DNA of 32,000 nt from Pyrodictium occultum (GTDB taxonomy: Archaea > Thermoproteota > Thermoprotei_A > Sulfolobales > Pyrodictiaceae): contig NZ_LNTB01000001.1 of the NCBI RefSeq assembly GCF_001462395.1, positions 990,001 to 1,022,000 of the forward strand, read 5' to 3'. Each line of letters begins with the position of its first letter. The stretch's first letter is position 1. Below the pieces are notes generated by a model, which ran no database searches, had not been told where the DNA came from, and saw only the letters and a program-made list of their open reading frames with translations. This document shows positions 11,195-31,023 of the stretch, in pieces. Position numbers and translations under genes: made by a program.

Positions 11195-11202
11195 GGGGAG
11201 GG

Positions 11203-13724: not shown

Positions 13725-14117
13725 ATGTTCGACGCCTTCCAGGGCATGGAGTGGGTGATTATCCTCCTGGTTATACTGTTAATCTTCGGGCCCAGCAAGC
13801 TGCCCCAGCTTGCCCGCGGCCTCGGCCAGGCCGTCTACGAGTTCCGCAGAGCAAGCCAGGGACTCCTCGAGGAGGATCAGGGAGGCAAGCCCCCGCAGAA
13901 GAGCGCTGGAGGCGTCTCCGGGAGCAAATCCGGCGGCCAGGGCAGCGCCCTCTCCAATATCGACGATGAGACTCTTAGGAGGCTTGCTGAGAGGCTTGGC
14001 GTGAAGGATGCTGATAAGAAGGATAGGGGCAAGCTGATAGAGGAGATAGTGGCGGAGGCGAAGAAGAAAGGACTACTAGACGAGATAAAGACGGAGGCCC
14101 AGCAGGGATCAGGGTAG
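13725..14117 (+). CDS. tatA: Twin-arginine translocase TatA/E family protein
   Basis: The N-terminus GMEWVIILLVILLIFGPSKLPQLARGLGQAVYEFRRA is the canonical TatA TM helix plus amphipathic helix, followed by a charged tail. Confidence 0.88.
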   Translation: MFDAFQGMEWVIILLVILLIFGPSKLPQLARGLGQAVYEFRRASQGLLEEDQGGKPPQKSAGGVSGSKSGGQGSALSNIDDETLRRLAERLGVKDADKKDRGKLIEEIVAEAKKKGLLDEIKTEAQQGSG

Positions 14118-14170
14118 TGGGTAGCCCGCGCCACCGGGGTGGAGCCGCCCCAGCCCAGGGAGCCTCCTAC

Positions 14171-15316: not shown

Positions 15317-15319
15317 GGC

Positions 15320-16264
15320 TCACACCCTCTTCTTGAGCGCGAGCGCCTCTAGCCTTATCACGCCCTCGGGCCGGTACATGAGCACGAGTATGAGTGCTGC
15401 GAGGGCTATAACCGGTGCATAGGCGGTGCTGAGCCCCAGGTACGTGTTGGCCAGGAAGCTCACCACCTGCTCAGCCAGGCCGAGTATTATCCCCGATATA
15501 ATCGAGCCGTAGAACGTGAAGCCGCCCATCGTGGCGGCGGCGAATATCCAGAGGAGCATGAACCAGCCGGTCTCCGGGTCCACGTAGTAGTAGTAGGAGT
15601 AGATGAACCCCGAGAGCCCGGCGAGCCCGCCGCCTATGAGCCAGGCCAGTCTTCTCACATTGTATATGTTGATCCCGGAGACCCTGGCAAGCACGGGGTT
15701 GCTGGCAGTAGCCCTCATGGCCTTACCAGTCCTGGTGCGCGTGAAGAGCCAGTGGAGCGCCAGGGCGAGCACGACAGCGGAGCCTATGGCGAGGAGGTGG
15801 CTCGTCTCAAGCGACACGATACCGCCCATCGTTGCGACCACGCTGCTCCGCTCCGGGAGAGCCACCTGGAGTAGCCCGGCGGTCGAGGCGGAAACAGCTA
15901 GCAGGGTGTAGCGGAGCACGAGGCTCACACCTATGCTCGCGACCAGCAGGTGGAGGGGAGTGGCACCCCTCCTCCAGAGCGGCTTGAAGGCGGCCTCGTC
16001 GCTCACCAGCGCCGCGAGCGCCCCGACGGCCAGGGCCGCAGCCAGCCCTGCTAGGAGGCCCGCCGCGCCGGCGCCGGAGGCTGCTGCGGCCAGGTAGGCG
16101 GCGTAGGCTCCGTAGGTGACGTACTCCGCGTAGGCGAAATTGGGCACCTTGGCGACCCTGAATATGAGGGTGAGGCCGAGCCCCATTAGCCCGTAGAGGC
16201 TGCCGGCGCGGAGCCCGTCAATAACCGCGCCGAGGAGCCCGTAGAGGATGGCCGAGCCAGCCAA
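15320..16264 (-). CDS. livH: Branched-chain amino-acid ABC transporter permease (LivH type)
   Basis: SLYGLMGLGLTLIFRVAKVPNFAYAEY and GKAMRATASNPVLARVSGIN are LivH hallmarks. There is a 3-nt gap to livM. Confidence 0.92.
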   Translation of the reverse strand: MAGSAILYGLLGAVIDGLRAGSLYGLMGLGLTLIFRVAKVPNFAYAEYVTYGAYAAYLAAAASGAGAAGLLAGLAAALAVGALAALVSDEAAFKPLWRRGATPLHLLVASIGVSLVLRYTLLAVSASTAGLLQVALPERSSVVATMGGIVSLETSHLLAIGSAVVLALALHWLFTRTRTGKAMRATASNPVLARVSGINIYNVRRLAWLIGGGLAGLSGFIYSYYYYVDPETGWFMLLWIFAAATMGGFTFYGSIISGIILGLAEQVVSFLANTYLGLSTAYAPVIALAALILVLMYRPEGVIRLEALALKKRV

Positions 16265-16276
16265 CCAGGACCACCC

Positions 16277-16990
16277 CTAGCCATGGTGTATGCCTAGGAA
16301 GAGCTCCTGGAGGTCGCGGCGGGAGAGTATCTCGCGCCCCGTGCCCTCGGCGGCTACCCTGCCGGCTACGAGCACATAGCCCCGGTCCGCCAGCTCCAGG
16401 GCACGGCGGGCATGCTGCTCCACTATGAGTATCGACGCGCCCGCCTCCTCCCTTATCTCTCTCAGCGAGTTGAGCAGCTCTATCGCCACCTTCGGCGCCA
16501 GGCCCGCAGTGGGCTCGTCGAGGAGAAGCAGCCTGGGCCTTGTCATGAGGGCGCGGCCCACGGCCAGCATCTGGCGTTGCCCCCCGCTGAGGGCTCCTGC
16601 CAGCGTTTTACGGAGCCCCCTGAGCACGGGGAATATGTTGAAGACCATCTCCATCGCCTCCCTCACCTTCTCCTCGTCCTGGACGAGGTAGGCCCCCATC
16701 TCCAGGTTCTCTTCCACAGTCAGGTCGGGGAACACGTTATTCGTCTGGGGAACGTAGCCCATGCCCAGCCTGGTCTTAGCCTCGGGGGCCAGCCAGGTGA
16801 CATCACGGCCCTCAAAGAGGACCTGGCCCCCGAACACCCTGGCGACCCCGTAGATGGTCTTCAGCAGCGTGCTCTTGCCGCTACCGTTGGGGCCCACGAG
16901 CGCCACTATCTCCCCTCGATCCACGTAGATGCTGACGCCCTGGACTATGACCATCTTCCCATAGCCGCCCTCGAGATCGCGGGTAGCCAT
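16277..16990 (-). CDS. livF: Branched-chain amino-acid ABC transporter ATP-binding protein (LivF type)
   Basis: Walker A GPNGSGKST, GMGYVPQTNNVFPDLTVEENL, signature LSGGQRQML and Walker B LLLLDEP. The start is ATG 16990, or the upstream GTG at 17002. Confidence 0.93.
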   Translation of the reverse strand: MATRDLEGGYGKMVIVQGVSIYVDRGEIVALVGPNGSGKSTLLKTIYGVARVFGGQVLFEGRDVTWLAPEAKTRLGMGYVPQTNNVFPDLTVEENLEMGAYLVQDEEKVREAMEMVFNIFPVLRGLRKTLAGALSGGQRQMLAVGRALMTRPRLLLLDEPTAGLAPKVAIELLNSLREIREEAGASILIVEQHARRALELADRGYVLVAGRVAAEGTGREILSRRDLQELFLGIHHG

Positions 16991-17007
16991 TACGGCCCTC
17001 ACGGCTC

Positions 17008-17482
17008 GGCACCGCCCTCAGCGGCTGTGGCTATAATGATGGGGAAGTTTAGCTCTACGAAACCCCCACGGTAGAGGAACACCCTGGCCGCCCTCATTAG
17101 CGTGCTCCTCACCCCGAGGATCGCCCTAACCCTGGGCTTCCCGATGTCCAGGTACCTGTACCTGAGCCTCGTCGGCCACTCAGCCTCAACCCCCGTACAA
17201 GTCCATGGGCGGCGGAGGGCTCGGAGCCACTACCTCGATCTCATCGGGCAGTATCTCCCTACCGAGCCCGGCTATCTTGCTCTCAACCATCCTCCCAGTC
17301 ACTTTAACGAAGCACTCCCTGCCAAGCTCTTCGACAACGCTCCACACGTCGTCAGGTGCCACTCCCTTCTTAACGGTTACCTGCTCCTCTCCGTCGAAAG
17401 TTCCCGGGAGTATGAAGGCGATCTTGCCCTTACGCCTCACAGCAGCCACGCGGCCGTAGACTGTTACCTGACCCCCCTTCAG
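17008..17482 (-). pseudogene. aspS: Truncated, frameshifted fragment of archaeal-type aspartyl-tRNA synthetase: N-terminal OB fold plus the start of the catalytic domain
   Basis: Frame 1 (17186-17482) reads LKGGQVTVYGRVAAVRRKGKIAFILPG..EEQVTVKKGVAPDDVW..CFVKVTGRMVESK..REILPDEIEVVAPSPPPPMDLYGG*. A 1-nt frame change at the ggggg-tt run (~17186-17192) continues it as EAEWPTRLRYRYLDIGKPRVRAILGVRSTLMRAARVFLYRGGFVELNFPIIIATAAEGGAEP*. An in-frame stop lies upstream at 17483-17485. The fragment ends inside the conserved EGGAE(LF) motif, 5 nt from the livF ORF. Confidence 0.8.
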
Positions 17483-17517
17483 TCACCACGGCCACCCCGG
17501 CCGCCGGTGGCGTGGGT

Positions 17518-17541
17518 GAGGGTAAATTCGAGGGTAAATTC
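17518..17541. repeat. Perfect 12-bp tandem duplication (gagggtaaattc x2)
   Basis: Read directly from the sequence. It lies in the spacer between the aspS fragment and the divergent methylase gene. Confidence 0.9.
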
Positions 17542-17640
17542 CGATCCACCCTCTGCAAGCCCGGGCAGGCGCTACACGAGTCACACTTGGGCCAGCGCAC
17601 AGAATCATTGCTACATAACACGATTTGAGGAGGAGCCGCT

Positions 17641-18765
17641 ATGGCCATGAAGGTGAACCCGTGGAGCAGGGTGCCTGTGCACAGGATCTACGTCTTCACC
17701 GAGCACGGGCTGACCCCGGGCCTCGTCGAGGCGTTCATGGAGTCTGCTGCTGAGGCCGGGTGCAGGGTTGTGGTGGACCCGTTTGTGGGCAGCGGCGTGG
17801 TGGCCGTGGAGGCTCAGGGCAGGTGCCTGGGCGCGGTGGGGGTGGACGCTAACCCCTGGGCGCTGGTGGTCTCCGCCGCTAAGACTAGGCCCGTGGACCC
17901 CGCCAGGCTCCTGGGCTGGGCCCGCGGGGCCCTCGAGGATGCGGGGGGCCTCGAGCCCCTTATCCCGTCCCCGAGGCTTAGCCGCTATCACCCTAGGGGT
18001 GTCCTCGAGGCGCTGGGGAGGCTCAGGGCCCTGGTGGAGGCCGCCGAGCCGCGGTGGAGGCCCCTCCTCCTAGCGGTCCACGCCTCTGTGGCGGAGAGGT
18101 ATAGTCTTCTCCGCCGCAGCCCGGCCCCCAGGCTCCGCCGCTCAGCCCCCAGGGCGGCGGCCGGGGACGTCTACAGGGAGTTCATGCGGGTGCTGGCCGG
18201 GGCGGCTGCGGACCTGGCGGGGCACAGCTTCTGCGGCCACGTCGACCTCGTGTGGGCGGACTCCACCCTGTGGATGCCTGGGAGGGTGTGCGGGGTGCTC
18301 ACAAGCCCGCCCTTCGCCAACAACATAGACTATATACGGCACTCCATGCTGGCGCTTCTGTGGGCGGGGCTCGCCGGGGGCAGCAGGGACCTCGGCTGGC
18401 TCAGGGGCATCCAGGCCCCCGGCTGCGAGGCCGCCGCCAGGGCGTGGAGGCCCGAGACGGAGGACCCGGAGGCCCGGAGGCTCGCGGAGGCGATAGGGGG
18501 CCGGAGGGCCCGCGGCTACAGGCGCTTCCTCCTACAGTACCTGCACTCCATGGAGAGGCACCTGGCGCTGCTGGCCGAGGCGCTGGAGTGGCAGGCATGG
18601 TACACCATAGGCGACAGCATACTCGGTGGAGCGTACATACCCACCCACAGGCTCCTGGCCCGCGCCGCCGAGAGGCACGGCCTCCGGGCAGCCCTAGAGC
18701 CCCTCGAGCCCAGGTGGAGGCCTGGTAGGAGCCTCTACCTCCTCAGGCTCGAGGCCAGGCGCTAG
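17641..18765 (+). CDS. Stand-alone DNA methyltransferase (N6-adenine/N4-cytosine class). Motif order is I...IV.
   Basis: Motif I is VVDPFVGSG (17776-17796), followed by GVDANPWA. Motif IV is TSPPFANNIDY (SPPF at 18304-18315). The SD-like gaggagg lies 6 nt before the ATG. G+C is very high; for example, 18121-18180 is 49/60 G+C. Confidence 0.8.
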   Translation: MAMKVNPWSRVPVHRIYVFTEHGLTPGLVEAFMESAAEAGCRVVVDPFVGSGVVAVEAQGRCLGAVGVDANPWALVVSAAKTRPVDPARLLGWARGALEDAGGLEPLIPSPRLSRYHPRGVLEALGRLRALVEAAEPRWRPLLLAVHASVAERYSLLRRSPAPRLRRSAPRAAAGDVYREFMRVLAGAAADLAGHSFCGHVDLVWADSTLWMPGRVCGVLTSPPFANNIDYIRHSMLALLWAGLAGGSRDLGWLRGIQAPGCEAAARAWRPETEDPEARRLAEAIGGRRARGYRRFLLQYLHSMERHLALLAEALEWQAWYTIGDSILGGAYIPTHRLLARAAERHGLRAALEPLEPRWRPGRSLYLLRLEARR

Positions 18766-18861
18766 CGCCCTGGCCGCCGTGTGGGAGAAAGCGGCGCTAC
18801 TTGCGGGGCACCGCACGGCCTCCAACGCTCCCGCAGCGCTTGAACCGTTCGCAGCAGAAGC

Positions 18862-18866
18862 TTTTT
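18862..18866 (+). terminator. T5 run in the convergent spacer between the methylase and the DUF499 ATPase
   Basis: gaagctttttagg is the only oligo-T tract in the 106-bp spacer. Confidence 0.3.
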
Positions 18867-18871
18867 AGGTT

Positions 18872-21800
18872 CTAGCCGGCTTCTAGCCTTATCTCCACGT
18901 GCCTTAGGCGTAGTGGGTACGTTGCAAGGAGCCTACTGTTGAGGATCTCCGCCAGATCTTTGAGGCTTAGAGGCTTTGAGCCCGTTTTCCTGGCGAACTC
19001 TACATCCACAGTTATCTCTGTTATTTCTCCAAGCCCTAACGCGAAGTTTATGAGCTTGTTGAGGAGCTCGTGGGTACCGCCCTTGGCACTTATCAACACG
19101 CTGGATCCGCTGGACTCAGACTTCACGAGCGCATCTACATGGCTACTGTAGTTGTAGTCTTTACCCTCAAGCTCCCGCATAGCCTCTAGGAAGGCCTTAA
19201 TGCCTGATATGGTCCTCCGTTCCACGGGGCCCGTATACTCCAGGCGTATACTGATCTCCTCTACAACCCGGTCGAGCGCGCCACTCCTTAGGATCTCCTC
19301 GCGGAGCTGGTAGGGGGTTAGGTCTTCCACTTCCAGGCGCAGATTCACCGGGGACGGTGGGGGCTTAGGTTCGGGGGGCTCCTCCCCGCCTTCACCGGTC
19401 TCCCCGCCTTCCCTGCCCTCGCACTGCCAAGTCTTCTCTTCAGGGTTCCATACCGGGTTCCTGCAGCCCTCCGGAGGCTTGGGCACGCACTTCAGCCCTT
19501 CCCCGCTCTCGAGTACACTACAGGCTTCCCGGGCCTCGGGAGAGCTGCACGGGGCTAGGGTTACGCCTTCCTGGGCAAGGGGCGGCCTCACCATGCACTT
19601 GGGGCCGGAGCTGGTTAGGGCCACTAGCCTGCCGCTCTCAACTAGATCCGCTATGCGCTCGACGACCTTGTTCTCTACCTCTAGGAGTATAACACTCGAG
19701 GGATCCTCCGTGAAGGCGGCTACCACCTCGTCGAGGCTTAAGGGGCGTCGTAAGGCACTGTATCGCCTGAGTATGACGTCCCTCATTAGGTATTCCGGGC
19801 TCACATCCTTCACGAGCTTACCCACGCCCAATAGGGCCTCCTCGACGGACTTGCAGAGGCCCTCCCGAGCCGTTGCTGAAGAGCTTTTTAAGGATATGCC
19901 ACCGAAGACTATGGAGCCGTCCGGCCTGGCGTCCAGCGGGTAGTATAGCTTCGAGTAGAGGGCTGAAATGTCGGAGCGCAGCTCTTTAACTAACTTATCC
20001 CTCATACGGTTAAGCTCGTCCACGTCTTCACGGTCTAAGCCGTAGTACTGCATTTGCTCCGGGCTTAAGAGCCTCGATATCGCTGTAAGCCTTGCTATGG
20101 TTTCGATCAGTGTTTCGTAGAGCCTCTCGTCGGGGATTAGGTAGAGCACAGTGTTCCGGTGACGCCGGTATACCCCGCCGGCCTGGCTGTACGTTGAGAA
20201 ACGCTGTAGCAACTCATCCAGCTTTGACCCGCCAGCCGCGACGTCGGGATCCTCCGGGTCTAGCAGGACGAGCTTTACGCGCGTGGAATCCTCTATATCG
20301 CCGGGGTGCCGGGGCCACACTACAACTTTACACCACCGAACCGGCTTGGCGATCCTATCCAGCTCGCTCCTCAGCTTGTCCCTAACGTACTCCCTACTTT
20401 TCTTGATTATCTCGTTTGCCAGGCGCTTAACTAGGGCGTACACGTTTGCCCGGGTCTTAACCATGTAGAGGGGCTCGCCGTGGCGAGTGCTTCTGTGGAT
20501 GTGTGCAGCGCTCTCTACGAGATAGTCTAGAACCTGCCTAGTGAGCTGCGGGGTGACGCCCCTGATAGGCGTCGCCGAGCCTAGCGCAACCTCCTCGGCG
20601 CTCGAGGGCTTCCCAGCGGCGCTCCTAACCAGTACTGCAGAGTAGACTAGCGACGCTATGGGGGGCATCCCCTCCCGCGTGTGGTGCTCATCGGCCTCCT
20701 CCACTACCTCAATGTCGTGGGAGACCGCTCTTCTGAGGCTTCTCAAGTCCTCGTTTCTAGAGAGCAGCTCGTCTAATATCTCCCTCTTAGTAGCGTCTAC
20801 GTCGCCTAGTAGGACTAAGTCGTAGGCGTCCCCCTTACGTAGCCTCCAATGGAGGGTCCAGGCCATTAGCCTGAGGATATCCCTTGTGCCCTGAAACTCT
20901 GGGATCTCCGCCAGCTCCTTGTAGAGGACGTCTACCAGGTAGGGGTGGAAGGGGTAGCTCTTCACAATCCTCGTTTCATACTCCGTCCTGGCGGCCTCAG
21001 ACGGGAAGAAGGCGCTCTCTTTAGAGTAGAAGTCGGCGTATTCACGCGCGACGGAGCGCGCTACGTCAGGGTCAACCTCTCTTAGAAGAGCGGCTTTTAG
21101 GACGGCCGCGGCGTCGCGGTAGCCCACTATCGACGACGTAGAGGCCACTCTCTTGACGCTAGAGAGTAGCCCCAAAATCCTCTTAGTCTCCTCGACGTAG
21201 CCATACTGCTGGGGGGTTGCTACGGCTAGCACTGCGTAATTAGAATTGGCTACGGCTACTGCGAGGTTCTGGAGGAACATTTGCAGCCCGTCGGCCTCAC
21301 TCCTAATGCTTTCGTCTCTAGAAAGCTCGAGGTTGCGGAGGTACATAGCTAGCTCGTCGATGAGTATCACGGGTCTAACGCCGGCCTCCTCGATTGCGGC
21401 TAGCAGCCTTCCTATCTCCTCGTGGCCTGGCACTAGTTCGCGGTAGCGGCGGATCCTCTGCAGAGCGCTGGCGCCCAGGCCTGCCGAGCGTGCTAGCTCC
21501 TCGAGTATGAAGGTCCACGCGTTTGGGGCTCCATACCGCTCCCTAAGCGTTATAGGGTCGACCGCAGAGCCGTCGAAAACTGCCACCGCGGAGCGTATGT
21601 TGACTGGGCCCTCTACCCCCACCTCTCTAAGGAACTCTCTCAGCCTGCGGCTCTTCAGGGCTTCGGAGAACCTAGCGGCGAGGTGGTAAATGGCTAGTAG
21701 AGTGTGGGACTTACCCCCGCCAAATCCTGTGTGGAGGAGTACGACCGGCTCGTAAGGGCCCCCGCGGAGGAGCCTCTTTAGAACGGTCCCGAGGACCTGC

Positions 21801-21991
21801 CTTAAGCCCTCCGAGAAGTAAGTGCGGTCAAAGAACTTAACAGGGTCCCGGTAGCGCTCATCTACGCATTCGTACCCCCCGCTGGAGCAGCCGTAGTGGA
21901 CGTACCATAGCTGCACGACGAAGCTGGCGCCGGTTATTCGCCCCTCACGTATCTCCTCAAACGCAACCCAGCCGGCACGGCCTGAAGACAC
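18872..21991 (-). CDS. DUF499-type (BrxC/PglY-like) P-loop ATPase, 1039 aa
   Basis: YRDPVKFFDRTYFSEGLRQVLGTVLKRL...VVLLHTGFGGGKSHTLLAIYHL matches my memory of the DUF499 N-terminal consensus. Walker A GFGGGKSH is at 21704-21727 and Walker B is VILIDELAMYL. The GTG start lies 15 nt after the upstream methylase stop, preceded by gggggtgg. Confidence 0.85.
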   Translation of the reverse strand: MSSGRAGWVAFEEIREGRITGASFVVQLWYVHYGCSSGGYECVDERYRDPVKFFDRTYFSEGLRQVLGTVLKRLLRGGPYEPVVLLHTGFGGGKSHTLLAIYHLAARFSEALKSRRLREFLREVGVEGPVNIRSAVAVFDGSAVDPITLRERYGAPNAWTFILEELARSAGLGASALQRIRRYRELVPGHEEIGRLLAAIEEAGVRPVILIDELAMYLRNLELSRDESIRSEADGLQMFLQNLAVAVANSNYAVLAVATPQQYGYVEETKRILGLLSSVKRVASTSSIVGYRDAAAVLKAALLREVDPDVARSVAREYADFYSKESAFFPSEAARTEYETRIVKSYPFHPYLVDVLYKELAEIPEFQGTRDILRLMAWTLHWRLRKGDAYDLVLLGDVDATKREILDELLSRNEDLRSLRRAVSHDIEVVEEADEHHTREGMPPIASLVYSAVLVRSAAGKPSSAEEVALGSATPIRGVTPQLTRQVLDYLVESAAHIHRSTRHGEPLYMVKTRANVYALVKRLANEIIKKSREYVRDKLRSELDRIAKPVRWCKVVVWPRHPGDIEDSTRVKLVLLDPEDPDVAAGGSKLDELLQRFSTYSQAGGVYRRHRNTVLYLIPDERLYETLIETIARLTAISRLLSPEQMQYYGLDREDVDELNRMRDKLVKELRSDISALYSKLYYPLDARPDGSIVFGGISLKSSSATAREGLCKSVEEALLGVGKLVKDVSPEYLMRDVILRRYSALRRPLSLDEVVAAFTEDPSSVILLEVENKVVERIADLVESGRLVALTSSGPKCMVRPPLAQEGVTLAPCSSPEAREACSVLESGEGLKCVPKPPEGCRNPVWNPEEKTWQCEGREGGETGEGGEEPPEPKPPPSPVNLRLEVEDLTPYQLREEILRSGALDRVVEEISIRLEYTGPVERRTISGIKAFLEAMRELEGKDYNYSSHVDALVKSESSGSSVLISAKGGTHELLNKLINFALGLGEITEITVDVEFARKTGSKPLSLKDLAEILNSRLLATYPLRLRHVEIRLEAG

Positions 21992-22006
21992 TACGAGCCA
22001 CCCCCG

Positions 22007-24652
22007 CTAACGGTCGTTTCTCATGTAGTCAAGGAGGCTGCGCTGCCCGGGAGCGCTTGAAGCCCCGCGGCCGTAGGGCTTGCCGCGTATACACACCTCA
22101 TATATACCCTGGAGAGCCTTCTTCTCATCTCCGCTGCTGTCCTCCAGCAGGACCTCTACCAGCCTGCAGACGCTAGCGCTGAGCCCGTAGCCCGCCTCCC
22201 TGAGGGCTTCTACCGCGCTGTCAACGCCGGAGGCTAGGAACCTTCTAACAGCTACTGCGAGGGCCTCGACTAGCGAGTCAGGCTTGATTGGGAGGCTGAT
22301 CTCGTTTAAGCTTCTGATGGAGTACACCTTCCTCCCGCCCGAGGCCCTGGATCCCCGGGTGAACCTCGCGATGAACTCCTCGTGGCTGTACCCGGTCGCG
22401 TACCCCAGCCTCCTCAAGTCGTCGTACTCGGGCTCGCCGTGTACGATGCGCGCCAGGAAGTACATCATTGTAACCTTGTCAACCTCGGCTTTGAGCACCT
22501 CATTAGCTATAACGTCGGACGCTAGGCTGCTGGCTTCATCTATAATGCTCTTAACGCTGACCGGCCGCCCGTCAGGGGTGAGCAGGGGCCAGCAGCCGCC
22601 GGCTAGCTTGAATGCGGCCCCGACGCCGGCCATGAACGCGTCCACGGGCCCAAGGCCTAAGCGTAGCACGTTCCTAACCGCCTCTTCAACAGCGCTTCTC
22701 AACTTATGCTGAAACCTCGCGTCGAAGAAGCACCTGCTGCCCTTCTCTCTCGGGACTGCCCCTATTATCAGCATAGTCCTAGCCGCAGCCTTGCCTACTA
22801 TATGCTGGCTCTTGGGCTGCTCCGAGGCAACCCCCCATACCCCGACAGGCTTCCACCCAGCCTCGAGGATAGCCTTGAACATAGCGTAGAGGCCTTCACT
22901 GCTGCGGTGAGCGTACATAACGGCAAGCCTCTTAGCCCCGAGCTCCCGGACAATGCTTAAAGCGTCTGTGAGCCTCTCCTCGAACCACGCGCCATCCTTA
23001 CCCTGGGCACGGTTAACAACAATCTCGCCATCCTTAGGCGTAACATCCCAGGTGAAGGCCTCAGGGTACAGGTCGCCGATGCTCCGCTTGAGCCACACAT
23101 AGAAGAAGTCGCTAAGCTCACCGTACTGAACGTTATCATAGTAGGGCGGGTCAGCGACAACATAGTCAACCCTATCGACCCCGGCATAGGTGGCTGCATC
23201 GGAGGCATCGCCCAGGACAACCTCGATACCTGAATTAGAGCCCTCCAAAAGGCTCACGATACGCTCGAGAGCCCTGACAACACCCACACGGCCAAAGAAG
23301 GCCCAGCTAAGCAGATCGTTTCGGCTTTTCCCGGGCACTATATCGCCCTCCCCGAAGTCGTCGCCAAACTGGTAAGTGTGACGGCTGAAAGTGTGACCTA
23401 TAGATCCCCTACCGTAGGGATCCCATATCGTTATGGCCGAGTTGTAGTCGAGCAGCCTCCCATGCCCGATGGCCAGGTATGTTGTAACAGCCCTGGCGTA
23501 CTCCCTGTCGTACCCTTCTCGGAGCATTTCGCTATACGCCTCCCTGATGTACTTAACCATGGCTGCATGGAGTAGGAGCTGCCGCGCGTTAAACAGCTTG
23601 TAGAATCTATCCATGCCGCGCAGTAGTACTTCTCGGGTTTTCACGCCTTCCGGTATGGCCTCTATGGGTATGAGGTCCTCTGCTACTAGCTCGCCCCAGT
23701 GGTTTCGGAGGTGCTCCTCCGCCCTCCTGTAGGCTTCTATAATTTCAGGGGTGGGCTCCACGTACGTGCCGTCCTCGAGCTTTACGGCCGCCAGCACCGC
23801 GGGGTGGTGGCCGTAGAGCCCCTCCTCCTCCCACTTCTTCATTGCCTCCCTGTACTGCCTCTGCAGCTCTTTTGAGTCGAGTATGGACCGGGGGCATTTG
23901 AGCCGTTTCCTGTGTATTGTGGAGTATTGCTCCTTGGCTTTGTTTACATCGCTGACGCTCACGATTCTGAGTACCGGGTCTCCTTTGCTGTCGAATCCCT
24001 CCAGCTTCAAGGCGATTTTTCTGTTTCTGGACAGTATTGGATTGGCTAGGCTGGGCATTCTGACTCCTTCTGGGCACGTGTAGACCCGCACCCACACGTA
24101 GCTGGTCGGCCTCCCTTTGGGGTGCGGGGGGTAGAACTGCTCGAGCTCCCTCCTCACATTGCCGGCCAGCCACTCCGCCCAGCGCCTGACATCCTCTACC
24201 AGCTTTTTCCCGTACCTTAGGGGGTACTCTAGTGTCGCCTTGAGGATTATGTAGGCTACTGGGTTGTACTCCACGGCTACGACCTTCTTGAAGCCCATGC
24301 GTAGGGCCTCGAATGCTATGCTGCCTCCCCCGGAGAACAGGTCTAGGAGAACGGAGTCCCCGGCGCGGCTGTGCCTGAACACCCAGTCCCTGTTCACGGC
24401 ATAGTTGTACGCGGGTCTCGGCAGGTTAGGCGTGAGCCTCACGGCGTTCAGGAATTCTGCCACGAAGCTTCTTGAAGGGGGCCCGTTAACGTCGACTGCC
24501 AGGGCTGCTATTGTAGCCCTGCTAGCTGCCAGGGGCCTCCGGGCCCACCAGAGGTGGAGGTAGAAGGACGGAGGAAAGAGTGCAGCTCTCTCCCTCTGCG
24601 ATTCTCTGCTAGCGTTTTCCGTGGGGAAGTAATACGCTATAAGAGGCTCCAA
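22007..24652 (-). CDS. DUF1156-type DNA methyltransferase (putative N6-adenine), 881 aa
   Basis: The N-terminal DUF1156 signature FYLHLWWARRPLAASRA is at 24524-24556. Motif I is DLFSGGG (24323-24343), followed by VAVEYNPVA. Motif IV is VVADPPYYDNVQYGELSDFFYVWLK (DPPY at 23141-23152). The start is TTG. Confidence 0.9.
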   Translation of the reverse strand: MEPLIAYYFPTENASRESQRERAALFPPSFYLHLWWARRPLAASRATIAALAVDVNGPPSRSFVAEFLNAVRLTPNLPRPAYNYAVNRDWVFRHSRAGDSVLLDLFSGGGSIAFEALRMGFKKVVAVEYNPVAYIILKATLEYPLRYGKKLVEDVRRWAEWLAGNVRRELEQFYPPHPKGRPTSYVWVRVYTCPEGVRMPSLANPILSRNRKIALKLEGFDSKGDPVLRIVSVSDVNKAKEQYSTIHRKRLKCPRSILDSKELQRQYREAMKKWEEEGLYGHHPAVLAAVKLEDGTYVEPTPEIIEAYRRAEEHLRNHWGELVAEDLIPIEAIPEGVKTREVLLRGMDRFYKLFNARQLLLHAAMVKYIREAYSEMLREGYDREYARAVTTYLAIGHGRLLDYNSAITIWDPYGRGSIGHTFSRHTYQFGDDFGEGDIVPGKSRNDLLSWAFFGRVGVVRALERIVSLLEGSNSGIEVVLGDASDAATYAGVDRVDYVVADPPYYDNVQYGELSDFFYVWLKRSIGDLYPEAFTWDVTPKDGEIVVNRAQGKDGAWFEERLTDALSIVRELGAKRLAVMYAHRSSEGLYAMFKAILEAGWKPVGVWGVASEQPKSQHIVGKAAARTMLIIGAVPREKGSRCFFDARFQHKLRSAVEEAVRNVLRLGLGPVDAFMAGVGAAFKLAGGCWPLLTPDGRPVSVKSIIDEASSLASDVIANEVLKAEVDKVTMMYFLARIVHGEPEYDDLRRLGYATGYSHEEFIARFTRGSRASGGRKVYSIRSLNEISLPIKPDSLVEALAVAVRRFLASGVDSAVEALREAGYGLSASVCRLVEVLLEDSSGDEKKALQGIYEVCIRGKPYGRGASSAPGQRSLLDYMRNDR

Positions 24653-24732
24653 GCCCCAGCGTCACCCTCAGGGCTCCCGGGCGCACTTAGGAGCTATAAT
24701 AGGGGGTTTGATATACTGTATTTAAGGATTCG
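24653..24732. promoter_or_regulatory. Divergent promoter region with two TATA-like boxes and a 9-bp palindrome
   Basis: ctataata is at 24694-24701 and tatttaag at 24719-24726. The palindrome atactgtat is at 24713-21. This is the only intergenic DNA between the methylase-ATPase operon and the nuclease-helicase operon. Confidence 0.5.
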
Positions 24733-26628
24733 TTGGTTGATCTGTTAAATGCCGGCTACTCTGGGGGCGAAGATTCATTGCTCATTGAAAAGTATATAGA
24801 GTCCGCCACGAAACGGCCTGGTTGCTCGGATTACGCGAGCAGGCTCCTAGACGCCACAAATCACATCGTTAGGGCTAAGAGTGTTGCAACGGCCGCCGCT
24901 CGATGCGTGTTTATGGCGCGCCTCGCGGAGACCCTGGGGATCCGGGGCTTCTACCACTCCGTCCTGCCGGGTAAGGGTGAGGTTATCCACTTAGCTCTGG
25001 CTCTCGCTTTCCCGGAAGTATTCCGGGAAAGCGTTAGGGGCGGAAAAGTCGACTTTGAGCATAATGCTGAGCGAGCTCTGGAGGCCTTGAAGGCCAACGG
25101 AGTCCTCGACTCCGGGCGGCTTGGAATAGGGGGCGAGGATGAGGTTGTTGGGATGACGGCTGAGCTGGCTAGGAGTGGCGTGGAATTCGCCAGGAAAGCG
25201 TTTGAAGCCCTGGCCGGGGATGAGGCTGAGGAGGCCCTGTCCCGTAGCCGCGTTATTGTTGAGCAGCACCTGATAAGCTATAGGCTCCATGTCTGGGCGG
25301 TTCCCGATGTTATTGTCGAGGATCCCGTGGGCCGCTACGCGGCTGTAATAGAGTGGAAAACGTACGCACCCGACCCCTCTAAAGCCCCCAATGTGGATAG
25401 AGCGGACTTAGCTCAGGCCTACGTCTATGCAATGGTTGAAGCTGAGAGGCTCGGGCTGATTAGAGATTATCACCGAGAACCTTGGAGGGCGTTCGATGAC
25501 TACGTCCACGCGGTCCTGGGCAGGGAGTTCCAGGGCAGTGGGGCTCGGGTAATACCTGGCATCGTGAGGCCAAGCCCCACGGGCAAGGCCTCGAGAATTG
25601 TAGACATCCACCCCCTCCTTTGCCGCGATGAGGATAAAAAGAAGAATAGATGCGACTACAGCGAGTTGAAAAAACTTCTTGCACGCATTGTACTGGCTGC
25701 CGAGCACTTAACTCTCTCAGTAACCGATCCGAGGCGCCACTTGAAAAACGCGGGTAACGTGGAGGCTTTGTGCAGCGTTCGAACTAAGGGCGGCATGCGC
25801 CCGGTCTTTAGGCGTGTGCCCGACCCATTTAGTTATGGCGGGATAGAGACGAGGATGCCCATGGGCAACCCTACGCGCACCCCATTGAAGTGGCCCTGCC
25901 TGGTATGCCCCGATAACGTGAGGGAGGCGTGCAGCCTCTACGTCATGAAAGGAGGCAACCTCTACACCCCCGATTTCGCTAAATTCTTCAAGGTAATCAA
26001 TAAGGAGGCTTGGAAGGCTCGCTTCGCCATATACTCGTACCGCGAGAATGCTTTGGCCCCGTATAAGAGCCTCAGAGAGCTGGCCTTACACTATGGCATC
26101 AGCACCAGGGTTCTATCAGAGGGCTCTAGCATCTACAGGTTAGACCTGTTCGACGAGGCATACGTCGACGGGGATGAGCTAGTTTTAACTAGGCGTCCGC
26201 TTCGCTGGGAGATCGAGAAGAACCACCTGTTCACGCTCCGCGAGGGGAAGCCTGTAGCCGTGTTCCTGAACGAGGAAAACGTGCGTGACCCGCTCCTCCG
26301 GATTAGCTTCCACGGAACTGTAAGCAGCGTAAGCTATAACACGGAGAGGGATATGGTCGAGGTTAGGGTTGCGCCGGCTAACAAGCTCTCCAGGATTTAC
26401 TCTATGATATTCGAGAGGTATTATAACGAATATCAGCAAGCATTCTATAACGTTGTAGCGCTTGAGGTTAACGTTGAACTGACACAGCTGGAGCTTCTCG
26501 GTGTGACGGGCTGGGAACTGGGGACTGCCGTGAAGGGGGCTAAGGCCCTAGCCAAGGCTGGGAGCGGCGGGGAGGACCTGGATGATGAGGACAAGCTGGC
26601 CCTACTCTTCGGGGGAGTGAAAGTGTAG
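24733..26628 (+). CDS. Cas4/RecB-like PD-(D/E)xK nuclease domain protein with a Cys cluster and a C-terminal beta-rich domain, 631 aa (Dna2 N-terminal-half-like)
   Basis: The ordered motifs are C58 (AARCVFMARL); GKGEVIH; VPD192VIVED...AVIE207WK209 (25306-25359); Q228AYVY232 (from 25414); and C389-x2-C392-x7-C400 (25897-25932). The exact start is uncertain, because TTG 24733 lies only 7 nt after one TATA-like box. The CDS call is firm, but the function is inferred from motifs. Confidence 0.65.
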   Translation: MVDLLNAGYSGGEDSLLIEKYIESATKRPGCSDYASRLLDATNHIVRAKSVATAAARCVFMARLAETLGIRGFYHSVLPGKGEVIHLALALAFPEVFRESVRGGKVDFEHNAERALEALKANGVLDSGRLGIGGEDEVVGMTAELARSGVEFARKAFEALAGDEAEEALSRSRVIVEQHLISYRLHVWAVPDVIVEDPVGRYAAVIEWKTYAPDPSKAPNVDRADLAQAYVYAMVEAERLGLIRDYHREPWRAFDDYVHAVLGREFQGSGARVIPGIVRPSPTGKASRIVDIHPLLCRDEDKKKNRCDYSELKKLLARIVLAAEHLTLSVTDPRRHLKNAGNVEALCSVRTKGGMRPVFRRVPDPFSYGGIETRMPMGNPTRTPLKWPCLVCPDNVREACSLYVMKGGNLYTPDFAKFFKVINKEAWKARFAIYSYRENALAPYKSLRELALHYGISTRVLSEGSSIYRLDLFDEAYVDGDELVLTRRPLRWEIEKNHLFTLREGKPVAVFLNEENVRDPLLRISFHGTVSSVSYNTERDMVEVRVAPANKLSRIYSMIFERYYNEYQQAFYNVVALEVNVELTQLELLGVTGWELGTAVKGAKALAKAGSGGEDLDDEDKLALLFGGVKV

Positions 26629-26649
26629 CTAGACGTGGGGTGAAGGTTA

Positions 26650-28236
26650 GTGCGCTATAACGTATGCGAGTTGCTCGCGAATGCGCTTAAAACGACGCGT
26701 GCGATAGGCGTTGATGCACTTAATAGTAGCCAGAGGAGGGCAGTCAGTATTATCGAGGAAATCTTCAGAGGTAGGGCCAAGGCGCCTTTAGCGGGGATTC
26801 AGGGGCCCCCGGGCACGGGGAAGACGAGTGTGGTCGAGGCATTCGCGAAGGACTACGTGGCTGACTGGATCGGGGATCACGTTGGCGAGGTAATAATTTA
26901 CGTGGCTCCCACAAACCACCTGGCGGCCCAGGCGTTTGAGCGTGTTGCCTCAGCTCTCCTAGCCCGCGGCTACACGTTAAGAGATATAATTAGCATGGTT
27001 AGAGTTTACGGGTCCAAGATAACGGTCAAGGATTGCGGCAAGGTGCTGAAGTCTCTGACCGGTAAGAGTGGAGGGCTCAGCGAGGAATTGCTAAAGGATA
27101 TTACTTACGGCCCGGTGGATCCCCACATTGTTAGGATAGTATTTACTACCGAGTACCAGAGGGTTAGCGGCAGATTCACCTCTAAACCCGAGCGAGTCCA
27201 CCTGATAGTCGACGAGGCCAGCAAGACGCCATTCTATAGGCCCTTCATAACCATAGTTGACAGTATAATGAGGTACAAGGACTACGCGGCGTCAATGTCC
27301 GTTCTAGGGGATCCGGAGCAGGCTATAACGATCCCCGAAGTCTTTAGGTTGCGCTCTGTTGACCTGCTCATGGACAAGGTCATGCGGTTGCTAAAGAAAA
27401 ACGATTTAATGAAGAGCAACTTCGTAATGCTGGATACAACCTACAGACTGCCGGGTCCCAGCGAGAAGCCGATAAGCCATGGATTCTATGATGACAAGCT
27501 ACAAGCTTTTATGCCTGCTAAGCAGAGATTGAAAGATTTAAGAGACCTATTTATAGATTTAGCAGGTAAGGTAAGATCCAAGCTTGAAATAGAGGCCTCC
27601 TGGGGTTCGCGGATGGATAGACTATTCGGCGCAATATACAATGCGGCGTCTTCAGGAGTCCCGCTTGTTGTTGTTGAAACCCCTAAATTTAGGGGAGAGT
27701 CTTACGCTTCAACCTATGACGCGGAGAGGGCAAGGCTCGCGTTGCACGCATCACTGATATTCGGGTTGTACGCTAGACTCGCCAGGGAAACAGGTGAATA
27801 CCCGATACCATCCATTATGGCTATAGCGCCGTACAGTGATATTGAGGCTAACATAGCATTCAACTTCAAGAGGCTCTATGGCAACATAGCGGAGCCCCCG
27901 ATGTCGGCAACCGTTCACGCGGTGATAGGTGGAGAGGCAGATATAGTAGTGTCGGTTCTTGGAAAGGAGTACGACACGGCGCGCGGGGGATATGTTGGGA
28001 GCGATGACTTGTACAGTACGGTATACTACAACGAGCCTCAAGTCTTGAATGTGCAGCTGAGCAGGCACTACAGGATGATGGTGGTAATAGGGTCCACGAG
28101 ACAGCTGGCGTCTGCGCATTCCTACAGGACCCGGGGACGGGGTGTAAGGGAGGTAGGGAAGATTGCACGGACAGCTAGTATGATGAAGAGGCTCGTGGAT
28201 GACGGTAAAGCCATCGAAATACCGATTGAATATTAA
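26650..28236 (+). CDS. SF1B helicase, Upf1/Dna2-like family, 528 aa
   Basis: Motifs are LNSSQRRAV; I GPPGTGKT (26803-26826); Ia VAPTNHLAAQAFERV; II LIVDEASK; III VLGDPEQ; IV LDTTYRLPGP; V ATVHAVIGGEADIVVSV; and VI LNVQLSRHYRMMVVIG. The GTG start is 21 nt after the nuclease stop and preceded by ggggtgaagg. This gene has the lowest G+C in the window; for example, 27481-27540 is 22/60 G+C. Confidence 0.88.
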   Translation: MRYNVCELLANALKTTRAIGVDALNSSQRRAVSIIEEIFRGRAKAPLAGIQGPPGTGKTSVVEAFAKDYVADWIGDHVGEVIIYVAPTNHLAAQAFERVASALLARGYTLRDIISMVRVYGSKITVKDCGKVLKSLTGKSGGLSEELLKDITYGPVDPHIVRIVFTTEYQRVSGRFTSKPERVHLIVDEASKTPFYRPFITIVDSIMRYKDYAASMSVLGDPEQAITIPEVFRLRSVDLLMDKVMRLLKKNDLMKSNFVMLDTTYRLPGPSEKPISHGFYDDKLQAFMPAKQRLKDLRDLFIDLAGKVRSKLEIEASWGSRMDRLFGAIYNAASSGVPLVVVETPKFRGESYASTYDAERARLALHASLIFGLYARLARETGEYPIPSIMAIAPYSDIEANIAFNFKRLYGNIAEPPMSATVHAVIGGEADIVVSVLGKEYDTARGGYVGSDDLYSTVYYNEPQVLNVQLSRHYRMMVVIGSTRQLASAHSYRTRGRGVREVGKIARTASMMKRLVDDGKAIEIPIEY

Positions 28237-28567
28237 TTATCGGTTGTCCGGAAACACGCCCTGAAGGGGGTAGGGTGGAGTATTGGTAACTCTCTTCAGC
28301 TGGGGCTAAGATGGGCCTCCTATTCTGGATTAAGCTACTTTAACTTTGCCAGGAGGTACTCGGGCCTTGCGGAGTGGCCGTGTTTGGGTGGAATGTACTC
28401 CCTTGACGCCCTTGAGTTTGGGTTTGTAGCGGTAGACGCCTGGCCTTGCTGCTTCGTTGTAAACCCTTCTCTATTACCAGGCTCTAGGATCCCGTTCCTG
28501 AGCCTGTACCTCCCCTCTGCCACGGGCTTGTGCTAGCACCGTCGAGCCTGCCAAAGCAACCAACCCC
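28237..28567. other. Non-coding or degraded junction between the helicase gene and the livG stop
   Basis: It contains only a 62-aa ORF of implausible composition. Two minus-strand frames give short protein-like stretches (AEGRYRLRNGILEPG; VYNEAARPGVYRYKPKLKGVKGVH) broken by stops. Confidence 0.4.
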
Positions 28568-29338
28568 CTAGACCGAGCCTAGGTAGGCGTCGAGCACGCG
28601 CGGGTCCTCGGCCACCTTCTCCGGCGGCCCCTCGGTGAGGACGCGGCCCTCGTGCATGACTATGACGCGTTCTACGTGGTTGAAGAGCACCTCGAGCCTA
28701 TGCTCTATAACGAATATTGTCAAGCCCTCCCGGTTGAGCCTCTCGAGTACCTTGAACAGGTCCTGGGCCAGCCTAGGCGCTACGCCGGCGGTCGGCTCGT
28801 CGAGGAGGAGGACGCGGGCCTCACCCATCAACGCCCTCGATATATCTGTAAGCTTCATCTGGCCGCCGCTAAGCTCCGAGGCGCGGTTAAGCGCCACCCT
28901 AGCCAGCGAGAGGCGGTGCAGCACATCCACAACCCGCTTAGCCAGGCTACTACGCTCCCAGCTCAGCCACTCGCTCCTCCTCAGCAGCGCTGCAAGAGGG
29001 CCGGAGCCCTTCCTATCACGTGCAGCCGTGGCGTCATTCTCCACAACGGTCATCCTGTGCCAGAGGCGGGGCACCTGGAAGCCCCGGACCAGGCCCAGCC
29101 GGTAGAGCTCATGGGGCGGGAGCCCGGTGACTTTCTCGCCGTAGAGGTATACGTCGCCCTTATCCGGGCGATAAATCCCCGAGATCACGTTGAAGAGCGT
29201 GGTCTTACCGCTGCCATTGGGCCCTATCAGCCCGACAAACTCACCATCCCGGATGGATATAGAGACGCCGTCCAGCGCTCGGATGCCGCCGAACCGTTTG
29301 TGGAGATCAACGGTCCTGAGCGCCTCGACACCCGCCAA
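28568..29338 (-). CDS. livG: Branched-chain amino-acid ABC transporter ATP-binding protein (LivG type)
   Basis: Walker A GPNGSGKTT, GLVRGFQVPRLWHRMTVVEN, signature LSGGQMKL, Walker B LLLDEP and a LivG-type C-terminus DPRVLDAYLG. The TTG start is preceded by gggaggt. Confidence 0.93.
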   Translation of the reverse strand: MAGVEALRTVDLHKRFGGIRALDGVSISIRDGEFVGLIGPNGSGKTTLFNVISGIYRPDKGDVYLYGEKVTGLPPHELYRLGLVRGFQVPRLWHRMTVVENDATAARDRKGSGPLAALLRRSEWLSWERSSLAKRVVDVLHRLSLARVALNRASELSGGQMKLTDISRALMGEARVLLLDEPTAGVAPRLAQDLFKVLERLNREGLTIFVIEHRLEVLFNHVERVIVMHEGRVLTEGPPEKVAEDPRVLDAYLGSV

Positions 29339-29646: not shown

Positions 29647-31023
29647 TCAAGCCGTGGGCTTCTGATACCACTCAGCGCTGTCGGTGGAGCCGTGCCAGAC
29701 ACCTATCTCCACGAACTTGCCGTCCTTCACGGCGAGTATCGAGTAGTCTGCTAGGGCCGCGTCACCGTTCTTGTCCAGCATCTTGTGGCCCGTAGCGCCC
29801 ATGAAGTGGAACGCCACGGTCGGCAGTACCGCCTTGATAGCCCTGCCGTCGTACGTGCCCGCTGTCAGCACGCTAAGCATGGCTATCCATGTAGCGTCGT
29901 AGGTGTAGTAGGCGTAGGTGGTTGGCGCCTCACCGTACTTCTGCTTATACAGCTCCTCGAAGTGCTTGGCCACCGGGTTCTTCGGTATGGCGGGCGCCGT
30001 TGCTATGAAGTGCACCCCCTCCAGGAACTTCGCTATCTCGGGCTTCTCGAGGAACGTCTTGCGGGCCATGCTGTCGGAGCCGAACCACTGCACCCGGCTC
30101 AGTATCGGCGTCTTGGCGGCCTGCTCCAGTATCTTCGTGCCATCGTTGTCGAATGCTATTATCAGTACGGCGGTATGCTCATCGGCGCCGAACTGCTCCA
30201 CCTTGACTGCGAGCTGGTTGACCTCGTTGGTTAGATCGGGCTTATCGGGCTGGTAGAGTATCTCCTCCACTGTGCCGCCGAGCTTCTCGAAGGTCTGCTT
30301 CACCAGCTCTGCGAGGCCGCGGCCGTAGTCATCGTTGCGAGCTATTATTACCAGCTTCGTGTAGCCCAGGCTGTGTATCAGCTTGGCTAGCACGGGGCCC
30401 TGGACGACATCGGGTGGTGCTGCGCGGAACACATAGTCATCGGGGAAGGCGGCGGCCTTACCAGTGCTGCTGGGGCTTATTACCACTATGTGGAGCTGGT
30501 TGGCTATAGGCATCACTGCCCTGGTCTCGCTCGTGGATAGGGGGCCTACGACTATCTGTATACCCTCGCTGGCGAACCTCTTTATCACGTTCACGGCCTC
30601 CTGGGGGTCAGCCTTGGTGTCCTCGTGTATTGGCTTGAACCTGTAGGGTGAGCCGGCCTGCTCCAGGAGCTTGTTCATCTCCTCTATCGCCAGCAGGGCT
30701 GCCTTGAGCCTCCTGGGGCCGTCCACCGCGTAGCCGCCGCTAACAGCTATGGCGAGGCCTATGGGGATCTCCTTGGGGAGGCCCTTAGCGGTGCCGGTGG
30801 CCTGCATAGTGCTCGTCGTGTGCGTCACAGTGGCCGTGGTGGTGGGCTGCGCCGGCTGCGTTGCAGTCTGTGTTACAGTAGCAGCCGGTGCTGGTGACGG
30901 TGTTCCTGTGGATGGATGCCCGCCCGATGTGGCTGCCAGGTAGGCCGCGATGGCCACTATTATTACAGCTATTGCTATACCCGCTACAGCTATACCCGCT
31001 ACACGTGCACCCGTGCCGGCCAC
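29647..31023 (-). CDS. livJ: Branched-chain amino-acid ABC transporter substrate-binding protein (LivJ/K family), membrane-anchored with a Thr-rich linker
   Basis: The N-terminal TM helix (IAVAGIAIAVIIVAIAAYLA) is followed by a Thr/Pro/Ala-rich linker (TVTQTATQPAQPTTTATVTHTTST). A type I periplasmic binding fold follows (IPIGLAIAVSGGYA...VGPLSTSET...). The start is GTG. Confidence 0.9.
   Translation of the reverse strand: MAGTGARVAGIAVAGIAIAVIIVAIAAYLAATSGGHPSTGTPSPAPAATVTQTATQPAQPTTTATVTHTTSTMQATGTAKGLPKEIPIGLAIAVSGGYAVDGPRRLKAALLAIEEMNKLLEQAGSPYRFKPIHEDTKADPQEAVNVIKRFASEGIQIVVGPLSTSETRAVMPIANQLHIVVISPSSTGKAAAFPDDYVFRAAPPDVVQGPVLAKLIHSLGYTKLVIIARNDDYGRGLAELVKQTFEKLGGTVEEILYQPDKPDLTNEVNQLAVKVEQFGADEHTAVLIIAFDNDGTKILEQAAKTPILSRVQWFGSDSMARKTFLEKPEIAKFLEGVHFIATAPAIPKNPVAKHFEELYKQKYGEAPTTYAYYTYDATWIAMLSVLTAGTYDGRAIKAVLPTVAFHFMGATGHKMLDKNGDAALADYSILAVKDGKFVEIGVWHGSTDSAEWYQKPTA
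30974..31003. repeat. Perfect 15-bp tandem duplication (gctatacccgctaca x2) inside the SBP membrane anchor
   Basis: Read directly from the sequence. It encodes the duplicated VAGIA-VAGIA in the TM segment. Confidence 0.9.

Follow-up and report, generated by a model that had tools for sequence, protein, structure and literature searches.

Operons that pair DUF499 and DUF1156 genes constitute the Hma system (PMC8565338). Hma and the BREX-related (BR) systems employ a helicase-nuclease effector (PMC12839542, PMC11232893), and HmaA joins a Swi2/Snf2 helicase to a PD-(D/E)xK nickase that is required for defence (PMC11232893). In a 2026 survey these operons were renamed BR types 1-3; the survey describes all BR helicases as Swi2/Snf2 proteins, with other nucleases sometimes located nearby (PMC12839542). 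A second line of precedent comes from the iron-staple nucleases, which commonly partner superfamily 1 (SF1) helicases (PMC7430649, PMC5704561). Here, we describe a 32-kb stretch of the genome of Pyrodictium occultum, which we call the window, in which Hma-like genes lie beside two open reading frames (ORFs) that we name NUC (nuclease, 24733-26628) and HEL (helicase, 26650-28236; 100% identical to CF15_05350). NUC and HEL are probably subunits of one helicase-nuclease that forms the restriction arm of a DNA-modification-based defence cassette. Our best reading of the sequences is that NUC–HEL replaces the Snf2 helicase-nuclease of Hma/BR systems as a heterodimeric restriction effector. Because the two are always found together and sit beside DNA-marking enzymes, their most likely role is to destroy DNA as one half of an anti-virus system, in a Dna2-like build cut into two proteins.

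The two genes and the region 5' of them comprise the following features.

24733-26628, plus strand: NUC, the nuclease subunit, 631 amino acids (aa) as listed, TTG start (ORF list)
24778, plus strand: probable true TTG start of NUC, giving 616 aa; homologues start with MLIE at aa 16
24889-25443, plus strand: PD-(D/E)xK core of NUC, aa 53-237 (PF12705), with C58 (nucleotides (nt) 24904-24906), GxGxxxH86, D192, E207-x-K209 and Q228xxxY232
25444-25887, plus strand: family-specific insert of NUC, aa 238-385, between QxxxY and the cysteine triad, with the AAEHLTL motif, R279, C347 and P363 conserved
25897-25932, plus strand: distal cysteine triad of NUC, C389-x2-C392-x7-C400; together with C58, a putative [4Fe-4S] "iron staple"
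25954-26625, plus strand: C-terminal helix–helix–β-barrel–helix region of NUC, aa 408-631 (AlphaFold2 model), candidate stalk and domain 1B
26650-28236, plus strand: HEL, an SF1B Upf1-like helicase, 528 aa, GTG start (Pfam AAA_11, AAA_12 and AAA_19)
24653-24732, no strand: putative promoter region from which the methyltransferase arm and the NUC–HEL arm would diverge, by direct reading of the sequence
24693-24702, no strand: TATA-like element GCTATAATAG, by direct reading
24719-24727, no strand: TATA-like element TATTTAAGG, by direct reading

The most consistent feature of this locus is the pairing of its two genes. Our locus set comprises the window and 75 fetched loci, with 62 from metagenomes. 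HEL lies directly downstream of NUC on the same strand in every locus with enough sequence (52/52), and the genes overlap or are separated by at most 25 nt in 58 of 61 loci. In P. occultum the ORFs are 21 nt apart, and these 21 nt hold a second in-frame stop. An exhaustive hidden Markov model (HMM) scan of 1.84 billion representative proteins returned 84 NUC clusters at 50% identity, while only 16 relatives, 35-60% identical, came out of a word-indexed search of 5.8 billion proteins. None of the 84 hits is a fusion with HEL, all being 793 aa or shorter, and the 90 HEL relatives measure 438-570 aa. Both ORFs had been picked out by a reading made from the letters of the window (the original prediction), and both are present in the ORF list. 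That reading expected the homologues to be adjacent or fused; they are always adjacent, but the search for fused homologues came back empty.

The start of NUC needs revision. The ORF at 24733 exists, as had been proposed, and opens with TTG, but translation probably starts at the TTG at nt 24778 (aa 16), since the homologues all open with MLIE there and the TATA-like element TATTTAAGG lies only 7 nt 5' of the TTG at 24733. We note that P. occultum NUC is missing from the collection of 5.8 billion proteins (best match, 60% identity), in which the neighbouring HEL is present at 100%; the NUC ORF, with its TTG start, is probably un- or mis-annotated in the public record.

PF12705 (PDDEXK_1) matches NUC over aa 53-237 with E = 2e-6 and 28.4 bits, over the curated Pfam cut-off of 22 bits. 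The same family matches 51 of the 59 sequences in our NUC alignment, whose members are 21-62% identical to the P. occultum query, with a best E of 7e-12. Seen across all 59 sequences, C58, G69, G82, H86, E177, D192, E196, W208, K209, Q228 and Y232 are invariant, as are R239, P363, C389, C392, C400 and L583, and position 207 is acidic throughout (E in 46, D in 13). With the HMM above threshold and the catalytic residues conserved, the PD-(D/E)xK assignment first made by eye is sound, and the positions given then are exact (C58, GKGEVIH, which lies at aa 80-86, D192, E207, K209, Q228, Y232, C389, C392 and C400).

By its sequence, NUC carries the "one Cys before, three Cys after" signature of RecB/AddB/Cas4/Dna2-type nucleases, in the iron-staple order of AddB, Dna2 and Cas4 (PMC7430649, PMC3466216). 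C58 and C389/C392/C400 are thus putative ligands of a [4Fe-4S] cluster. All four are kept in 59/59 members, as the original prediction would have it, although NUC holds eight cysteines and not four. The triad is spaced CX2CX5C in most homologues and CX2CX7C in the P. occultum subfamily; CX2C occurs in 41/59 and CX5C in 32/59. The AlphaFold2 model of full-length NUC has a mean predicted local distance difference test (pLDDT) of 70 and a predicted template modelling score of 0.74, with pLDDT below 50 around the four cysteines (aa 44-81 and 376-413). As a separate observation, C31 (nt 24823-24825) and C347 (nt 25771-25773) are kept in 44/59 and 48/59 members, and C297 (nt 25621-25623) and C307 (nt 25651-25653) in the close subfamily only; possible roles of these four residues are binding of a second metal or disulfide formation.

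Between QxxxY and the cysteine triad, NUC holds a spacer that is found family-wide, with 116-181 residues and a median of 140 in all 59 members. Its pLDDT is mostly 61-92 (aa 238-385). Because the spacer is universal and holds conserved motifs such as AAEHLTL, the inserted domain suspected from the long gap is real.

Outside PF12705, matches to the nuclease half are sparse. Against the BFVD database, Foldseek ranks phage exonucleases, Cas4-family and other PD-(D/E)XK proteins at the top, weakly (E from 7e-3, none at E≤0.001) though with coherent functions. NUC profiles gave only chance-level matches to PDB sequences (E>0.1), and NUC has no match in PADLOC or NCBIfam. The earlier label "Cas4-like" fits at the level of the PF12705 superfamily and the cysteine signature, but no Cas_Cas4 match at E≤0.1 was obtained with any of the 59 members. 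NUC is not Cas4 proper: it is about three times the size of Cas4 and the window is without cas genes. The described pfam12705 Cas4-like proteins that are fused to, or share operons with, UvrD or COG1205 resemble NUC–HEL in combining a PF12705 nuclease and a helicase near Mod/Res-type or other defence genes (PMC5704561). In those systems, however, the partners are SF1A UvrD-like or SF2 YprA-like helicases of bacteria and mesophilic archaea, whereas HEL is an SF1B Upf1-like helicase of hyperthermophilic archaea, and NUC bears both the extra insert and a candidate helicase-type accessory domain. We also considered whether short HMM matches represent a separate barrel-only family; they are fragments of the NUC family.

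In AddAB, the AddA subunit is an SF1A helicase and AddB carries inactive helicase-like lobes of its own; the two serve recombinational repair with Chi regulation. AddAB, RecBCD and AdnAB are like NUC–HEL in being multi-subunit and, for AddB, in combining an Fe-S-stapled RecB-type nuclease with an SF1 motor from the neighbouring gene (PMC7430649). They have no sequence relationship to NUC–HEL beyond the nuclease superfamily.

HEL matches AAA_11 (32.3 bits), AAA_12 (27.9) and AAA_19 (32.3), all above the curated cut-offs (27, 27 and 25.1 bits, respectively). Motifs I, Ia, II (DEAS), III (GDPEQA) and IV (TYRLP…FY) are conserved in 31 aligned homologues (27-59% identity), and so are motifs V (IGGExD…LGKE) and VI (LNVQLSRH). 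The last two had been singled out as atypical, and this turns out to be a trait of the whole family; the motif sequences read previously are correct, with GPPGTGKT at 52, DEAS at 188, GDPEQ at 220, IGGEAD at 426 and LSRHYR at 470. Compared with PDB sequences, the HEL profile finds Upf1 (5e-14) together with Nam7, Sen1, SETX, Aquarius, ZNFX1 and IGHMBP2, with Dna2 reached only at 2.8e-3. The Walker A motif lies at aa 52, and the alignment to Upf1 begins about 176 residues into the crystallised Upf1 core, so that HEL consists of the two RecA lobes alone and lacks a stalk and a domain 1B. The two-lobe architecture proposed for this SF1B helicase thus stands, with motifs I-VI intact. From family membership, HEL would be expected to translocate 5'→3'.

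The stalk and 1B missing from HEL may instead be present at the C terminus of NUC. The AlphaFold2 model of aa 408-631 (mean pLDDT 73.6) has a helix–helix–β-barrel–helix fold. In the AlphaFold2 models the strands of this region lie at 460-548 and 572-578, which agrees with the β-rich C terminus described earlier. The motif NV(E/D)LTQLEL (aa 580-588) is strongly conserved and includes L583, kept in 59/59. A weak match that would make the NVELTQLEL region Xre-like, a helix–turn–helix, was rejected, as the model places a strand and then a long helix in that stretch. When this C-terminal model was compared with the PDB by Foldseek, the top match was SETX (8ftm_B, E = 8.4e-5, probability 1.00, 206 columns), followed by the ZNFX1 helicase core (9q9z, 2.4e-3), SETX again (8fth, 2.6e-3) and Aquarius (1.5e-2). 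These are all Upf1-like SF1B helicases, and generic β-barrels rank after them. Full-length NUC gives the same ranking against the PDB, with no match at E≤0.001 and a list made up mostly of β-barrel proteins.

The Upf1-like helicases (Upf1, Sen1/SETX, ZNFX1, Aquarius and IGHMBP2) resemble the pair in two respects: they share the AAA_11/AAA_12 core and its motifs with HEL, and they provide the best fold matches of the NUC C terminus, their only β-barrel being domain 1B. They differ in carrying the stalk and 1B (and 1C) on one chain with the RecA lobes, and most act on RNA. The fold matches are suggestive of the NUC C terminus being the stalk and 1B β-barrel of an Upf1-like helicase. In this model, the two genes seem to be parted at the border of domains 1B and 1A, and the unusual feature of NUC–HEL is probably a helicase domain 1B supplied in trans. 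If the 1B assignment holds, the composite would read nuclease, barrel/stalk, 1A and 2A in turn, as in Dna2, whose structure reportedly runs from nuclease through β-barrel/stalk to RecA 1A and then 2A.

Given these relatives, we considered an RNA-directed system, in the manner of Upf1 or the Mokosh protein MkoA, in which viral transcripts would be the target and NUC a sensor or RNase. The nearest solved relatives are the RNA helicases Upf1, Sen1/SETX, Aquarius and ZNFX1, and MkoA is the best PADLOC match of HEL (4e-17). Some Upf1-like enzymes, however, work on DNA too, namely IGHMBP2 and Dna2, and the genes linked to the pair encode DNA methyltransferases or DndC-like DNA-modifying enzymes. The partner of HEL has a RecB/AddB/Cas4-type nuclease domain, whose characterised members cut DNA (PMC3466216, PMC7430649). 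We regard RNA targeting as highly improbable.

Nhi is a single-chain defence enzyme that joins a nuclease to an SF1 helicase. It has a weak PADLOC match to HEL (2.8e-5) over motifs V-VI. The similarity to Nhi is limited to about 60 HEL residues, and NUC, a separate chain, has no PADLOC match. We note in addition that locus L011 encodes a second SF1 AAA_11/AAA_12 helicase of 596 aa (2539-4329, minus strand), divergent from and just upstream of NUC–HEL.

The genomic setting is what points most directly to defence. The neighbours of NUC–HEL in the window are the following.

22007-24652, minus strand: DUF1156 N6-adenine-type DNA methyltransferase, HmaB-like, with DPPY at aa 501 (Pfam, PADLOC, NCBIfam)
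18872-21991, minus strand: DUF499 AAA+/STAND-like ATPase, HmaC-like (PADLOC, NCBIfam)
17641-18765, plus strand: small DNA methyltransferase, 374 aa, with DPFVGSG near aa 46 and SPPF at aa 222 (PADLOC MTase_II, 7e-12)

Clear homology links the methyltransferase to HmaB (Pfam 4e-11; PADLOC HmaB 3e-52; NCBIfam DUF1156_antiphage 9e-40) and the ATPase to HmaC (PADLOC HmaC 1.8e-68; NCBIfam DUF499_antiphage 2.2e-25, under the equivalog cut-off). The DUF1156 gene adjoins NUC divergently in 31 loci (29-60% identity), and a DUF499 gene is present in every complete methyltransferase-type locus. The DUF499/DUF1156/NUC/HEL layout is found in all 7 complete genome loci (Desulfurococcales, Pyrodictiaceae, Acidilobaceae and Aeropyrum) and in many metagenome loci; Staphylothermus hellenicus and another genome have the four genes in rearranged order. 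The small SPPF methyltransferase is a fifth cassette gene; in 24 other loci a homologue 41-66% identical to it is the direct neighbour of HEL. In P. occultum the gene lies beyond the DUF499 gene, in a region whose GC content of about 0.64-0.69 is unlike that of the rest of the island described below; it has no significant Pfam or NCBIfam match, with D12 methyltransferase sub-threshold at E = 0.013.

The cassette resembles Hma/BR systems both in these two proteins and in having a helicase and a PD-(D/E)xK nuclease as its presumed restriction effector. In contrast, the effector here is an SF1B helicase with a separate Fe-S-type nuclease and not a fused Swi2/Snf2 protein, and a second, small methyltransferase is added. 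No Snf2 helicase was found in the window, among the called genes of loci L001 and L010, or among the listed genes of L011. Because the pair belongs to a conserved cassette with DUF1156, DUF499 and a second methyltransferase, we favour a defence effector over a Dna2 of replication or repair. In GCA_027046645.1 (L001 414-3146) the cassette lies directly beside genes for a Cas3 helicase and Cas3 HD protein, a defence-island setting.

Genes of a putatively different marking chemistry accompany the pair in Sulfolobales. In Sulfurisphaera ohwakuensis, Stygiolobus caldivivus and about 24 of the loci, NUC–HEL has DndC-like and SspD-like genes beside it; these PAPS-reductase-family neighbours match DndC (PADLOC 1.5e-36; TIGR03183 2.6e-32) and SspD (7e-18). 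As the same NUC–HEL pairs with these genes, it appears to be an effector module that occurs with either of two marking chemistries. The pair sits between the SspD-like and DndC-like genes, in a conserved cluster at 3566-17600 of the S. ohwakuensis locus (L012) and 3736-14621 of the S. caldivivus locus (L013). This cluster adds three conserved proteins of unassigned family (about 361, 589 and 474-495 aa), and next to that of S. ohwakuensis lie genes for a McrB-like AAA_5 ATPase and for a partner of 401 aa. The Sulfolobales cluster may be an undescribed phosphorothioation-type system; we found no description of it in the searched literature.

The same neighbourhoods bear on whether the pair might be a housekeeping enzyme of end resection or replication-repair, a split archaeal analogue of Dna2 or AddAB, as the original prediction implied. 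The idea of a split Dna2-like enzyme was largely right as to architecture, with a domain order that resembles Dna2 if the 1B assignment holds, though not as regards Dna2 family membership by sequence. Like Dna2 of eukaryotes and archaea and bacterial Bad, NUC–HEL combines a RecB-type nuclease bearing the iron-staple cysteines (one Cys upstream, CX2CXnC downstream) with an SF1B motor, and iron-staple nucleases with SF1 helicases do function in resection (PMC7430649). Dna2 is a single chain, whereas here two polypeptides are encoded, with the break after the barrel. Further differences from Dna2 are that none of the 59 NUC members has a Pfam Dna2 match, that HEL is closer to Upf1, that NUC has an insert of about 140 aa before its cysteine triad and that the context is one of defence and not of replication or repair. 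A housekeeping role also sits poorly with so rare and patchy a family, with a low-GC island that interrupts a transporter operon, and with DNA-modification genes that adjoin the pair in nearly all long-enough loci, joined in some by Cas3 or McrB-like genes. We therefore consider it improbable.

In P. occultum, that island spans about 11.5 kb (~17100-28500) and splits a liv-type branched-chain amino-acid ABC transporter operon on the minus strand, the parts of which are listed here.

29647-31023, minus strand: liv binding protein, on one side of the island
28568-29338, minus strand: LivG-like ATPase, on the same side as the binding protein
16277-17002, minus strand: second liv ATPase, on the other side of the island
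15320-16264 and 14171-15316, minus strand: two liv permeases, on the same side as the second ATPase

GC content is 0.50-0.60 within the island (19-28 kb) and 0.63-0.70 outside. A low-GC island inside an operon might suggest that NUC and HEL replicate or transfer an integrated mobile element or virus. Searches of the locus, however, found no integrase, replication initiator or capsid gene, and the island has no integration scars in the form of a tRNA or flanking direct repeats. By tblastn, moreover, no NUC–HEL homologue was found among 72,556 plasmids or 50,697 phage records. We give this origin hardly any weight.

Several observations weigh against NUC–HEL being the restriction arm of a modification-based cassette. 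Eighteen loci have no visible modification gene, most of them on short contigs, which stop no farther than 1-3 kb from the pair. The evidence for functional coupling to DUF499/DUF1156 is synteny, because the DUF499 survey names Swi2/Snf2 helicases only; the text of that survey is without SF1, Cas4 or Dna2 components, and the NUC–HEL variant is not listed in it (PMC12839542). The 1B assignment comes from Foldseek matches with low template modelling scores (0.27-0.33), made with a model whose mean pLDDT is 74; at E≤0.1 none of the 59 NUC members matches a Pfam 1B family, and Dna2 is outside the top 50 structural matches of the C-terminal model. We infer the physical interaction of NUC with HEL, the Fe-S cluster, the polarity and the substrate. 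Finally, archaeal Dnd-Pbe blocks virus replication without degrading DNA (PMC6459918), so degradation is not the sole possible outcome.

The loci without modification genes also raise the alternative that the two genes are a complete defence system by themselves, like Hachiman, Gabija or Nhi, and are only co-located with modification modules. The pair does occur with two unrelated modules, or with none visible, and its gene order varies by clade: the modification genes are divergent and adjacent in the window, whereas in L010 and L011 they share the strand of the pair at a distance of 1-3 kb. The weak PADLOC matches of HEL to MkoA, Nhi and AbiO might be read in the same way. On the other hand, DUF1156 is the immediate divergent neighbour in the 31 loci noted above, with DUF499 and the small methyltransferase co-conserved, and the truncated contigs would account for most of the partner-less loci. 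A processive nuclease-helicase without a self-marking partner would, in addition, require another rule for telling self from non-self. Considered together, these points make a self-contained system unlikely.

In the restriction-arm reading, which we prefer, the methyltransferases would mark host DNA, and the DUF499 ATPase would sense unmarked DNA and license the effector, as proposed for BrxC/HmaC. The stalk and β-barrel at the C terminus of NUC would dock on the 1A lobe of HEL and complete an Upf1/Dna2-type channel for single-stranded DNA. HEL would then translocate 5'→3' on single-stranded DNA from a nick or end, and the Fe-S-stapled NUC would cut the threaded strand, as in Dna2, Bad and AddAB. 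A more specific proposal, which we hold tentatively, is that NUC–HEL is an obligate split SF1B helicase-nuclease: with the stalk and 1B moved to NUC, the Dna2-like channel would form only on assembly, and the enzyme would be a portable restriction effector of hyperthermophilic archaea, used with methylation-based DUF1156/DUF499 or phosphorothioation-type DndC-like marking, so that both system classes would gain an undescribed subtype. In the searched literature we found no SF1B/Fe-S nuclease pair described as tied to DUF499 or DndC-like modules, and the genera of the NUC–HEL loci were not found in the checked supplements of PMC12839542.

If correct, this assignment would tell what a rare archaeal protein family without annotation does. 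It would mean that the effector of DUF499/DUF1156 (Hma/BREX-related) systems is exchangeable and need not be Swi2/Snf2, as the current classification states, and that one effector serves two DNA-marking chemistries in archaea. NUC–HEL would also be a natural SF1B helicase in which the regulatory, strand-separating 1B is supplied in trans, and a thermostable pair of this kind would suit structural work on the role of 1B and the stalk in Upf1/Dna2-type motors.

Two further ORFs of the window deserve mention. The ORF at 17102-17650 (plus strand, 182 aa) overlaps the start of the small methyltransferase, has no homologue in the 75 loci and no family match, and may not be a gene. Outside the island, the window is housekeeping; upstream of the transporter genes, an ORF at 11551-13113 (plus strand) encodes a 520-aa HD-domain protein whose HD-associated region is sub-threshold (21.1 vs 23.1 bits).

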